Positions 9,708 to 54,491 of a stretch of DNA of 64,000 bases are shown in pieces; the first letter of the stretch is position 1, and the number at the start of each line of letters is the position of its first letter. The DNA is from Escherichia coli (GTDB lineage Bacteria; Pseudomonadota; Gammaproteobacteria; Enterobacterales; Enterobacteriaceae), in the NCBI RefSeq assembly GCF_011045215.1, contig NZ_CP049201.1. One strand, 5' to 3'. A program made the position numbers and the translations under genes. Below the pieces are notes generated by a model. The model made no database searches, had not been told where the DNA came from, and saw only the letters and a program-made list of their open reading frames with translations.

Positions 9708-11058
9708 AAACCGTGCTCCGCGTCATTCGGAAAATGCCATACAGTACCAGGGCGATAACCGGCACCAGACCAATGGCGATGATATTGCCGTTGAAGATTT
9801 CCAGCAGCCAGAAGCGGAACGGGTTACCGCCATCAAGGAAACTGGAAACCTGGCCGCTGGAGCCTTCGGCAAATTTGAAGTTAACGTCTTTCGCCATGCC
9901 GGTAATAAACGGTGCGATTTTAGTCGCAATCCACAGGTCGGCAATAATCACCGGGATCGCCGCCAGAACGGTGCGGAAAATATTGCCACGGCTGGCTAAA
10001 GCAATCATCGACGCCATTACCGCCAGGTTGGCAAGGTCGCCAAGCGGCAGGACTTCATTACCTGGGAGGACAAACGCGATAAAGACCGAGATTGGCGTTA
10101 GCAGCAGGGCGGTGGAGATAATCGCCGGATTACCTACGGCAACGGCGATATCCAGTCCGATATAGAGATCGTCACGGTCAGGGTATTTGGCATTGAGATA
10201 CTTTTTAATGGCTTCAGACAGCGGTAATAAACCTTCCATCAGGATGCGAACCATGCGTGGCAGGATGAACATCACACCGCCAATGCTGATGCCAAGCAGC
10301 AACACTTTTTTGAAATCGTATCCTGCAATCACGCCGAGCAGTATGCCCAGAATAGTGCCAACCATCATCGGTTCGCCGAAGATGCCAAACTTTTTCTGTA
10401 CGGTTTCCGGGTCGATATGAATACGATTGAGGCCGGGGATATGGTCGATGATTTTGTCGACCAGCAGACCGACCGGGAAGAACACCACCGAAGAGAGCGT
10501 CGGCAATGAGATCCCTTCCAGTCCAAAGTATTTTTGTACCAGTGGCGCAGACCAGTCGGCGAGTTTAAGTACTACCACCGCAGCAATCGCCGCCGCCAGC
10601 AAACCAAAGAACAGGCTGCCGGTGCTGTAATAAACCAACGTACCAGCAAGGGCAAAATGCCAGTAGTTCCACATATCTACGTCAACGGTACGGGTTTTAT
10701 TTAACGCCAGCATCGCCACGTTAATCAGAATGGTCAGGGGAATAACAAACGGGGCAATTGGCGAACCCCATGTAATAGCGGAAAGCGGCGGCCAGCCTAA
10801 ATCTACCACCGGTAAATTAATTCCGGTGCGTTCAACCATCGCCTGGGCCGCTGGCCCGACATTGCTGGTCAGAATATCGAAAATGGCATAAATACCGACA
10901 AAACCAATGCCGACTGTTAATGACGAACGTAAGGCTTTAGCGGGTTTTACTTTAAAACAGAGAGCAAGAATAAATAACACCAACGGCAACATTACCGTCG
11001 GGCCAAATCCCAATATATATTGCACAATATTATAGAGGGTATGCGCGATATCGTTCAT
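9700..11058 (-). CDS. PTS EIIC permease, galactitol (GatC)-type
   Basis: Polytopic membrane protein with GatC-like blocks. Start placed at the ATG (MNDIAH...) that sits 7 bp after an AAGAGG ribosome-binding site; the ORF track extends 10 codons further upstream to 11088. Confidence 0.8.
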   Translation of the reverse strand: MNDIAHTLYNIVQYILGFGPTVMLPLVLFILALCFKVKPAKALRSSLTVGIGFVGIYAIFDILTSNVGPAAQAMVERTGINLPVVDLGWPPLSAITWGSPIAPFVIPLTILINVAMLALNKTRTVDVDMWNYWHFALAGTLVYYSTGSLFFGLLAAAIAAVVVLKLADWSAPLVQKYFGLEGISLPTLSSVVFFPVGLLVDKIIDHIPGLNRIHIDPETVQKKFGIFGEPMMVGTILGILLGVIAGYDFKKVLLLGISIGGVMFILPRMVRILMEGLLPLSEAIKKYLNAKYPDRDDLYIGLDIAVAVGNPAIISTALLLTPISVFIAFVLPGNEVLPLGDLANLAVMASMIALASRGNIFRTVLAAIPVIIADLWIATKIAPFITGMAKDVNFKFAEGSSGQVSSFLDGGNPFRFWLLEIFNGNIIAIGLVPVIALVLYGIFRMTRSTVYA

Positions 11059-11134: not shown

Positions 11135-11416
11135 TTAATTTTTAAGGATCGAAACAATTTGCGCCAGTACTTTCTCTTCGCCAATACCGGTAATAATCGG
11201 CAAGCCGTTAACTACCGGGACGTCGAGTTCATAAGGCACTTTAGTCGTTGAGACTACCAGTGCTACGCCATCAGTATTTCCAGGTAAAGAGGCAACGTTG
11301 GTTTGGGAATAATTGACGTTAAGACCGTGCTCTTTACAATATTCCATGACTTTTTCTGTTACCGCCGTGGATGTGGCAATACCCGTGGCGCAGACAAATA
11401 AAATGGTTTGACTCAT
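11135..11416 (-). CDS. PTS EIIB component, GatB-type
   Basis: 93-aa ORF with N-terminal phospho-Cys motif (FVCATGIATS). Confidence 0.8.
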   Translation of the reverse strand: MSQTILFVCATGIATSTAVTEKVMEYCKEHGLNVNYSQTNVASLPGNTDGVALVVSTTKVPYELDVPVVNGLPIITGIGEEKVLAQIVSILKN

Positions 11417-11886
11417 ATTTCACCTCGTTCTTTCATTTTGTTTAAGATTACTGTGTGTATTTCTGTTGTTTCCATCGCAAGCAGGGCTTGCATAAAGGGC
11501 GTATCCTGAATCATTTCCATAATCCAGCCCAGGGCATTTAATTGTTTATTACTTTCGCTTAAGGCGAGCAAAAAAATCACCCTGACAGGTACGGGGTCAG
11601 GATCGCCGCCCATATCGGCAAACTCTACCGATTCCGGCAGGATGCCGACGGCAATTGCATTGTGCCTGACATGTTTATGGTCCGTGTGCGGAATAGCGAC
11701 GCACGGTGGTTCGGTAGGCAGCCCCGTTGGGTACGTCGCCTCACGTTTCAGTACGTGATCGGCAAAATCAGGGACGACCAGCTCGGCGGCAACCAACGGT
11801 TGCGCTAACTGACGGATGATCTGTTCAACGCTTAACCCTGCCGGAAGTCGTTGAATATAATTTTCCTGAAAATGTATGCCTTGCAT
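11413..11886 (-). CDS. PTS EIIA component (type 2; mannitol/fructose/galactitol family)
   Basis: 157-aa ORF; active-site His context (AIPHTD); ATGA overlap with the EIIB gene. Confidence 0.8.
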   Translation of the reverse strand: MQGIHFQENYIQRLPAGLSVEQIIRQLAQPLVAAELVVPDFADHVLKREATYPTGLPTEPPCVAIPHTDHKHVRHNAIAVGILPESVEFADMGGDPDPVPVRVIFLLALSESNKQLNALGWIMEMIQDTPFMQALLAMETTEIHTVILNKMKERGEI

Positions 11887-11910
11887 TTTATTCCTCTTAA
11901 AAAAGTGTAC

Positions 11911-12666
11911 TTAACTCACTTCCCGCCGTTGCAGTACGGTGCCAAGATAATATTTATTTCCTTTTAACCAGACGTTGCCAAACTCAATGGGTAATCCTCG
12001 GGAGAAAAAGACTAACTGCTCCAGATGCAAAACGGGTGCGTCTTCACTGATATCTAAAAAATGACCACGTTCATTACCAATTAATCGCGCGGCATAGCGA
12101 CTTTCCGAGTAACGAATTTTTCTTTGCGACAAACTTTCTATTGTTGGAAATAAATTGTGTTGATTAAAATCGATTTCCGCAATACCAGGGCATAGCTCAA
12201 TATTGATACGGTTCTCTATCAGCATCGCTTTTTCATCACCAATTGAGCGTAAGCGTTCAAGGTAAAGAATATCCTGACCGGGCGTTATTCTTAATTTCTC
12301 TGCCACATAACGATTAGCCGGTTCAATCCGTGACGTAATAACTTCAGTGGTAAAATGTATTTTCTGGCTTTCCAGCGATTCCGCGAATGACAATAATCCT
12401 TCACCTAACGGATATGCCACGTTCTCTTTTTTGACAAATGTTCCCTTACCCTGGACCTGTATTAACACGCCTTCTTTTACCAGTTGGGCGACCGCTTTTT
12501 TAACGGTTCCCCGACTCACTTCCAGCATATCCATAATCTGGTATTCCGAAGGAATGCGATCGTCTTCCACCAGATCTCCGGTATAAATACTTTCTCTTAT
12601 CCACTCCACCACTTGTTGATAGAGCGGTATTTGTGACGACTTACTTAATGATTTCATGGCGCGCAC
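11911..12666 (-). CDS. GntR/HutC-family transcriptional regulator (winged-helix plus UTRA effector domain)
   Basis: 251-aa ORF; N-terminal GntR-type HTH (SEYQIMDMLEVSRGTVKKAVAQLVKEGVL) and UTRA-like C-terminal domain; first gene of the PTS operon. Confidence 0.8.
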   Translation of the reverse strand: MRAMKSLSKSSQIPLYQQVVEWIRESIYTGDLVEDDRIPSEYQIMDMLEVSRGTVKKAVAQLVKEGVLIQVQGKGTFVKKENVAYPLGEGLLSFAESLESQKIHFTTEVITSRIEPANRYVAEKLRITPGQDILYLERLRSIGDEKAMLIENRINIELCPGIAEIDFNQHNLFPTIESLSQRKIRYSESRYAARLIGNERGHFLDISEDAPVLHLEQLVFFSRGLPIEFGNVWLKGNKYYLGTVLQRREVS

Positions 12667-12680
12667 CTGAACATTTACAG

Positions 12681-12704
12681 TTGTCTATGGACAATCATGG
12701 ACAA
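12681..12704 (-). promoter_or_regulatory. Candidate operator of the GntR-family regulator
   Basis: TTGTC-tatg-GACAA inverted repeat plus a third GGACAA half-site (ttgtctatggacaatcatggacaa), 15-38 bp upstream of the regulator start. Confidence 0.45.
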
Positions 12705-12821
12705 CTTCAAGCGTATAGTAGGTGAACGGGAGAAAAAGAGGATCGAAGCGTCTCACATTTTGAGGGACCAAATCGTGATCAAAAAAATGTGACGTGAGTC
12801 GATATTTGTCAGAAGTTTACT

Positions 12822-12845
12822 GCGCCGTAAGGAAATAACGGCGCG
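12822..12845 (-). terminator. Hairpin just downstream of nikR (candidate terminator)
   Basis: Inverted repeat CGCCGT / ACGGCG with 9-nt loop immediately after the nikR stop; weak U-tract. Confidence 0.35.
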
Positions 12846-12855
12846 TTGGTAGGTG

Positions 12856-15659
<2,804 letters not shown>

Positions 15660-53777: not shown

Positions 53778-54491
53778 ATGGAAAAAGTCATGTTGTCCTT
53801 TGACAAAGTCAGCGCCCACTACGGCAAAATCCAGGCGCTGCATGAGGTGAGCCTGCATATCAATCAGGGCGAGATTGTCACGCTGATTGGCGCGAACGGG
53901 GCGGGGAAAACCACCTTGCTCGGCACGTTATGCGGCGATCCGCGCGCCACCAGCGGGCGAATTGTGTTTGATGATAAAGACATTACCGACTGGCAGACGG
54001 CGAAAATCATGCGCGAAGCGGTAGCGATTGTCCCGGAAGGGCGTCGTGTCTTCTCGCGGATGACGGTGGAAGAGAACCTGGCGATGGGCGGCTTTTTTGC
54101 CGAACGTGATCAGTTTCAGGAGCGCATAAAGTGGGTGTATGAGCTGTTTCCACGTCTTCATGAGCGTCGTGTTCAGCGGGCGGGCACCATGTCCGGCGGT
54201 GAACAGCAGATGCTGGCGATTGGTCGTGCGCTGATGAGCAACCCGCGTTTGTTGTTGCTTGATGAGCCATCGCTCGGTCTTGCGCCGATTATCATCCAGC
54301 AAATTTTCGACACCATCGAGCAGCTGCGCGAGCAGGGGATGACTATCTTCCTCGTCGAGCAGAACGCCAACCAGGCGCTGAAGCTCGCTGATCGCGGCTA
54401 CGTGCTGGAAAACGGTCATGTGGTGCTCTCCGATACTGGTGATGCGCTACTGGCGAATGAAGCGGTGAGAAGTGCGTATTTAGGCGGGTAA
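53778..54491 (+). CDS. livF: Branched-chain amino-acid ABC ATPase
   Basis: 237-aa product starting MEKVMLSF; Walker A (GANGAGKTT), signature (MSGGEQQM). Confidence 0.9.
   Translation: MEKVMLSFDKVSAHYGKIQALHEVSLHINQGEIVTLIGANGAGKTTLLGTLCGDPRATSGRIVFDDKDITDWQTAKIMREAVAIVPEGRRVFSRMTVEENLAMGGFFAERDQFQERIKWVYELFPRLHERRVQRAGTMSGGEQQMLAIGRALMSNPRLLLLDEPSLGLAPIIIQQIFDTIEQLREQGMTIFLVEQNANQALKLADRGYVLENGHVVLSDTGDALLANEAVRSAYLGG

Follow-up and report, generated by a model that had tools for sequence, protein, structure and literature searches.

Gene cluster and predicted operator

The window, by which we mean the whole 64-kb stretch of DNA analysed here, carries an island in which a regulator gene, PTS genes and genes for associated proteins probably form one transcription unit (Table 1). 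The regulator stop codon and the start of the IIA gene are separated by a 24-bp gap. The gene content, consisting of a Gat-type PTS, an FGGY kinase and an aldolase without a dehydrogenase, points to a pathway that converts a ketose into a ketose bisphosphate and then into trioses. A local tblastn search places the regulator gene together with those for the aldolase, IIA, IIB, IIC and the kinase; this grouping is conserved in Enterobacterales, Gilliamella, Enterococcus, Selenomonas/Centipeda, lactobacilli and Atopobiaceae. Within E. coli, 1637 of 5426 complete genomes carry the island. Among these is O157:H7 EDL933, whose intergenic region is identical to that of the window. Over the segment used as query (11900-12860), the window matches strain PapM-32-1 with 100% identity, and the PGAP annotation cited in Table 1 is that of the identical strain.

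At the island's far edge, a HicA/HicB toxin-antitoxin pair (approximately 6370-7000) is located between yhhJ and the aldolase gene; HicA is annotated as frameshifted. On the nikR side, a hairpin (GCGCCGT-N9-ACGGCGC, 12822-12844) occurs just after the nikR stop codon and is not followed by a T-run. Given this lack and an empty terminator scan (see below), read-through from nikR into the island operon is possible.

Table 1. Coordinates of the predicted operator, the promoter elements and the genes of the island
Feature	Position	Strand	Basis or context
Predicted operator	12681..12704	-	sequence, statistics, orthologue conservation, matrix score
Core palindrome TTGTCCATAGACAA	12681-12694	-	within predicted operator
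Auxiliary direct unit TTGTCCATGA	12695-12704	-	within predicted operator
Conserved block around operator, AAG...C	12680-12707	-	orthologue conservation
Inferred -10 hexamer TACTAT	12715..12720	-	conserved TAnnAT column block in 20 aligned promoters
Proximal CRP-like site TGTGAGACGCTTCGAT, TGTGA-GACGCT-TCGAT	12742..12757	-	TGTGA half nearly invariant in alignment
Distal CRP-like site TGTGACGTGAGTCGAT, TGTGA-CGTGAG-TCGAT	12788..12803	+	aligns with better orthologue sites
GntR/HutC-subfamily regulator gene, 248 aa	11911..12657	-	Pfam GntR + UTRA; PGAP annotation
Regulator SD AGGTG	12664-12668	-	upstream of regulator start
PTS IIA	11413-11886	-	same transcription unit, downstream of regulator
PTS IIB	11135-11416	-	same transcription unit
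PTS IIC, Gat (galactitol) type	9700-11058	-	same transcription unit
FGGY kinase	8199-9707	-	same transcription unit
HPr-like protein	7940-8209	-	same transcription unit
Class II ketose-bisphosphate aldolase	7048-7908	-	same transcription unit
nikR	12856-13257	-	upstream of regulator gene

The original prediction placed a GntR-family regulator next to the repeat, and the Pfam matches confirm this. An N-terminal GntR wHTH domain (4e-16) and a C-terminal UTRA domain (8e-28) both exceed the gathering score. Because it combines a GntR wHTH with a UTRA domain (chorismate-lyase fold), the regulator belongs to the HutC subfamily. Its scores against the NCBIfam models HutC and PhnF are far below the cut-offs. 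The effector domain (residues 79-248) corresponds to PDB entry 3hfi, which is described there as "Putative regulator".

The predicted operator reads TTGTCTATGGACAATCATGGACAA on the plus strand. This sequence can be divided into TTGTC TATG GACAA TCAT GGACAA, which is letter for letter the TTGTC-N4-GACAA, 4-bp gap and GGACAA that were initially noticed at 12681-12704. Read on the minus strand, which is that of the regulator gene, it is TTGTCCATGA-TTGTCCATAG-ACAA. It therefore consists of two direct 10-bp units, the second of which forms a palindrome, TTGT-N6-ACAA, with the ACAA that follows. The overall layout is TTGT-N6-TTGT-N6-ACAA, with the TTGT units 10 bp apart, and the operator ends 23 nt before the annotated ATG at 12657. 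A repeat finder reports two copies of the 8-nt direct repeat ATGGACAA with a spacing of 10 bp, and an outer 11-nt inverted repeat (12679-12689 and 12696-12706). The ATGGACAA pair represents direct repeats at helical-turn spacing, as found in operators of the FarR/MngR/NagQ type.

The HutC-subfamily consensus, NyGTMTAKACNy, has a GT/AC gap of 4 nt, and the predicted operator does not fit it. Its gap (TTGT-CCATAG-ACAA) is 6 nt in all lineages compared. Thus, of the short inverted repeat of HutC type that was originally proposed, the palindrome stands, but its spacing is N6 instead of N4 and it is combined with direct 10-bp units.

The pattern TTGTC-N4-GACAA has two matches in the window, versus 0.09 expected from shuffles, and the full 24-mer occurs only once. 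We rejected the second match of the shorter pattern (53793-53806) as unrelated, since it falls within coding sequence where two genes overlap, and its score with the matrix described below is low. The gene at that position overlaps the end of the preceding gene, and its product, which starts with MEKVMLSFDKV, is presumably LivF-like.

Conservation and specificity of the block

A scan of one genome per species yielded 80 loci that encode relatives of the regulator. The 24-bp block is found at the equivalent position before the orthologous regulator gene in about 35 Enterobacterales genomes, including the Salmonella STM3779-3785 island. The operator pattern also precedes the regulator gene beyond Enterobacterales, in Gilliamella, Selenomonas and Enterococcus. 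Across 20 promoters from about 15 Enterobacterales genera, the block starts at -47 from the start codon and is nearly invariant, while the flanks diverge. A comparison of the 130 nt upstream of the start codon gave the close-relative consensus GTTGTaCATgaTTGTCyATAGACAAC, and the information content falls sharply at both edges of the block. Within Escherichia, the operator is invariant, and none of the intergenic SNPs falls in it, in the -10 element or in the proximal CRP-like site.

The closest relatives share a conserved 5′ leader over its entire length, as far as the start codon. Therefore, conservation among these relatives is not specific to the operator, and the case rests on distant lineages and on sites upstream of second operons.

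Among the more distant lineages, those whose regulators are 66-71% identical keep TTGTkCATAsTyGTAyAyAGAyGA while all flanking sequence differs. The pattern is kept in Raoultella, Erwinia, Serratia, Buttiauxella, Gilliamella, Selenomonas/Centipeda and Enterococcus, where regulators are only 55-71% identical. The number of units varies. Gilliamella has three to four phased direct units, with the final half-site, ACAA, replaced by a degenerate GATG. The Selenomonas operator is symmetric and has four units. In the Enterococcus avium group (L040-L046), the approximately 130 nt upstream of the regulator gene contain up to eight TTGTACA-like units, which appear to be in a 10-bp register.

When the window was searched with a 24-nt matrix, a single site was found (12704..12681, 32.9 bits); the next unrelated match scored 7.5. 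A leave-out matrix, for which only lineages with a regulator of 71% identity or less served as training set, gave the site 27.8 bits; the next unrelated match scored 7.8, and the highest score among 100 shuffled windows was 20.9. No second operator was detected by matrix anywhere in the operon or the 64-kb window. The operator of the Salmonella STM3785 orthologue, which was outside the training set, scored 37.9 bits.

Some genomes have a split cluster of two operons, with the PTS and kinase genes in one and the regulator, aldolase and HPr genes in the other. In 16 such genomes, a second site on which the matrix was not trained lies upstream of the IIA gene and scores 26-31 bits. Apart from the operator sites, nothing above 10 bits was found in these loci of 14-15 kb. 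The site is thus kept upstream of both the regulator and the target genes in orthologous loci. The specificity of the matrix and the conservation of the block are direct observations, as are the sequence itself, the domains of the regulator and its gene context.

Pantoea sp. BAV 3049 (L021) has the operator only before its PTS operon (31 bits), with none upstream of the regulator gene. Therefore, autoregulation is not universal in this family.

Collinsella homologues (43% identity) and the promoters of the Enterococcus avium group score only 8-16 bits with the 24-nt matrix, despite their related GTCTATA or TTGTACA units. We did not use them as evidence of the exact architecture. In Collinsella and other Coriobacteriia (L058-L081), the 43%-identical regulators occur in a different context. 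Weak related repeats there (GTCTATA units, 10-13 bits) are found close to a divergent aldolase gene, and also some 4 kb downstream of the regulator gene.

Predicted promoter elements and CRP-like sites

We aligned 20 close orthologous promoters from about 15 genera. The alignment has four conserved islands: TAnnAT, a nearly invariant TGTGA site, a distal CRP site and the leader, which shows no variation between the operator and the start codon and includes the Shine-Dalgarno sequence AGGTG. The TAnnAT island corresponds to a hexamer 10 nt upstream of the operator, which we interpret as the -10 element. Transcription would then start near 12708, i.e., 7 nt past this element, and the operator would occupy roughly +5 to +28. 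A scan of 12500-13000 for consensus promoters and terminators found nothing, and no -35 element. Because of this empty scan, the -10 element and the start site are based on conservation only.

The proximal CRP-like site is located at a constant -45.5 from the operator in the close promoters, and its TGTGA half has one variable column across the 20 promoters. It would be centred about -41.5 from the inferred start; -41.5 is the position of class II CRP sites. We rejected the possibility that TGTGAC in this site is a -35 element, as it is about 30 nt from the -10 element. An equivalent site with 1-3 mismatches is present in nine of ten more distant Enterobacterales promoters; none was found in L031. 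In distant Enterobacterales regulator promoters, the CRP site is -43.5 to -46.5 from the operator, and Gilliamella promoters contain a perfect CRP site. Promoters of PTS operons in split clusters have their CRP site at -62.5 to -64.5 from the operator, and several of them contain what we read as a -35-like element, TTGAAG.

The distal CRP-like site has a near-constant position of -91.5 (-90.5 to -92.5) relative to the operator, or about -87.5 from the inferred start. It aligns with TGTGA-N6-TCACA sites having 0-2 mismatches in 15 other genomes, Salmonella included. In Escherichia and Citrobacter it is degenerate, with the distal half decayed to ATCGA or CACGA. The distal and proximal sites together form a 20-nt imperfect inverted repeat.

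Both sites in the window have 3 mismatches to TGTGA-N6-TCACA. In the window alone, CRP matches with at most 2 mismatches are already as frequent as in shuffles, so that sites with 3 mismatches are at chance level. The significance of the distal site therefore comes only from the comparison with orthologous promoters. The weak CRP-like match that had been pointed out upstream of the repeat is present in the sequence, although its coordinates are 12788-12803 and not 12787-12802, and in this comparison it aligns with near-perfect CRP sites in orthologues. The stronger candidate CRP site in E. coli is the one at 12742-12757, which was missed at that stage.

The block between the two CRP-like sites (12763-12787) is kept in about 15 Enterobacterales genera as aTGATCc...gaTTt.GaaC; in the window, it reads TTTTTTTGATCACGATTTGGTCCCTCAAAA on the regulator strand. 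In this conserved TGATC block, we found no convincing match to IHF, Cra or CytR-like sites.

In nearly all Gammaproteobacterial regulon promoters examined, the operator is accompanied by a CRP site whose distance from it hardly varies. In Enterococcus, our reading is that a cre-like sequence, TGATACCGATTACA, located between the -35 and -10 elements, replaces the CRP sites. Given that a CRP or cre-like box accompanies the operator, the regulon would be subject to catabolite control as well as specific repression in all genomes that have it.

Relatives, proposed regulation and alternatives

The best full-length PDB match to the regulator (E-value 1e-22) is NagR (YvoA), which has the same two-domain architecture. 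As with the dre sites of NagR and DasR, the predicted operator is a palindromic site overlapping a promoter that serves a PTS or catabolic operon. The inducer of NagR is a sugar phosphate. In the NagR-DNA structure, Arg38 reads G-5, Arg48 reads G-4 and Gly69 in the wing reaches the minor groove (PMC4333415). R49 and G70 of our regulator align with Arg48 and Gly69, and both are invariant in 28 homologues. By contrast, the equivalent of Arg38 is Tyr39, and the operator has T, not G, at the corresponding position. The difference between the NagR half-site, TGGT, and the TTGT found here fits this replacement. The dre sites also have a GT/AC gap of 4 nt, whereas the operator has 6 nt and an extra direct half-site one turn upstream.

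HutC operators have half-sites identical to those of the predicted operator, e.g., TTGTATAGACAA and TTGTCTAGACAA in the portion of the HutC site tables of PMC4494728 that we consulted. However, they are TTGT-N4-ACAA, while the operator is TTGT-N6-ACAA with a direct repeat, and the regulon differs. In the same portion of these tables, only canonical N4 HutC sites are listed, and neither this regulator nor its motif is among them. The 4-nt GT/AC spacing holds for most members of the HutC subfamily, with FarR, NagQ and SdhR listed as exceptions; FarR (TGTATTAWTT, 10 nt) and NagQ (TGGTATT) recognise direct repeats (PMC4494728). The operators of FarR/MngR and NagQ thus resemble the predicted operator, whose units are likewise repeated directly, 10 bp apart. 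The FarR unit differs from the unit here (TTGTnCATnn), and the Enterobacterales array ends in an inverted half, which makes it a true palindrome. A precedent for a wider spacing is AraR, in whose two DNA complexes the half-sites are separated by 6 or 8 nt (as cited in PMC4333415). AraR illustrates that a wHTH dimer of the GntR family can accept two extra base pairs between half-sites, but its effector domain is of the LacI type and its half-site differs.

The closest described counterpart of the island is the orthologous cluster STM3779-STM3785 of Salmonella enterica. Its regulator is 83% identical, and it has the same gene set, operator, -10 element and two CRP sites as the window. It occupies a different chromosomal location, and the HPr and aldolase genes are in the opposite order. 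Judging by Pfam content, its neighbours there would be genes of the uhp locus. The Salmonella island has been reported as a complete PTS of unknown specificity (PMC3604774), and expression of STM3784 was ArcA-dependent in a microarray study (PMC3075218). Our literature search found no study of the regulator or the operator, including those of the Salmonella orthologue.

We consider it probable, at roughly 85%, that the repeat serves as operator to a catabolic operon encoding a HutC-subfamily repressor, a galactitol-family PTS, an FGGY kinase, an HPr-like protein and a class II aldolase. Since it lies just downstream of the conserved -10 element, the operator would govern the whole operon and not only the regulator gene. 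The original prediction envisaged an autoregulatory operator; the comparative data argue strongly for the operator, while autoregulation alone appears too narrow a role.

As to binding, repression, the transcription start, CRP dependence and the inducer, we infer the following scheme. A repressor dimer would bind the TTGT-N6-ACAA palindrome, with Arg49 and the wing residue Gly70 reading the G of each TTGT, like Arg48 and Gly69 of NagR. The third TTGT, exactly one helical turn upstream, could provide a second, cooperative contact. Because the block is immediately past the -10 element (roughly +5 to +28), the bound repressor would block RNA polymerase at the start site. The phosphorylated form of the PTS substrate would bind the UTRA domain, leading to release of the repressor. 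Activation would come from cAMP-CRP at about -41.5 and at the weaker upstream site, and the promoter is expected to need it because it has no -35 element. Since the regulator is cotranscribed with the structural genes, it would be negatively autoregulated together with them.

The site could instead be purely autoregulatory, with the PTS, kinase and aldolase genes under a promoter of their own, and genomes with split clusters do have separate regulator and PTS promoters. However, each operon of the split clusters has its own copy of the operator, which indicates that the structural genes are targets. In the window, moreover, the regulator and IIA genes are only 24 bp apart, and a second site was found by matrix in neither the operon nor the 64 kb. 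We therefore regard a purely autoregulatory site as unlikely. Slightly less likely still is that the block is bound not by the adjacent regulator but by another protein, such as a global sugar regulator or a GntR paralogue. Co-occurrence with the regulator gene does not prove that the regulator binds, and N6 spacing is atypical for the HutC subfamily. Nonetheless, the block is co-inherited with this regulator in Proteobacteria, Bacilli and Negativicutes with differing neighbourhoods, and the TTGT half-site matches the recognition residues, in that Arg49 is kept and the equivalent of Arg38 is lost.

We also considered that the block works as RNA, with a 5′ leader hairpin governing translation or stability. 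It would be transcribed if the start is near 12708, and the leader folds into a 10-bp hairpin (-12.6 kcal/mol). This fold is no better than those of shuffles (z = -1.15; 29 of 200 shuffles were as good), and an Rfam scan of the region gave no match. Furthermore, it is the sequence that is conserved and not the pairing: the Raoultella-type TTGTATACAGATGA cannot pair, and Gilliamella and Enterococcus carry runs of direct repeats instead. An RNA element is accordingly very improbable. Finally, the repeat might have arisen by chance and have no function: palindromes of 5+5 nt are common, and a second TTGTC-N4-GACAA occurs in the window, inside a gene. Yet only 0.09 matches are expected per window, and conservation of the block extends across phyla and also holds within the species. 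To judge from these comparative data, a functionless chance repeat is excluded, and we give it the least weight of all.

Returning to a repressor acting on this operator, its mode of binding might be other than that of a simple dimer on a palindrome. We tentatively suggest, as a possibility that we doubt more than we favour, that the regulator polymerises along one face of the DNA on TTGT units 10 bp apart. The site in the window has three such units, those of Gilliamella and Selenomonas have four, and the number reaches eight in the Enterococcus avium group. If true, array binding would be a cooperative N6 mode that has not been described structurally for HutC-subfamily repressors.

It is well supported by the comparative data that the predicted operator is of a HutC-subfamily type within a CRP-dependent catabolic promoter, with N6 spacing and phased direct repeats as modest peculiarities. 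In other respects, this would be an ordinary repressor-plus-CRP catabolic promoter. As a well-sampled HutC-subfamily site with these two properties, it is useful to models of DNA recognition in the GntR family, and the matrix can now be used to find further members of the regulon. The layout of operator and promoter provides an experimental handle on an accessory island whose PTS is orthologous to that of Salmonella STM3779-3785. If the array reading is true, the operator would also be the handle on the sugar of this PTS island, which E. coli O157:H7, Salmonella subspecies I and gut Firmicutes have in common.
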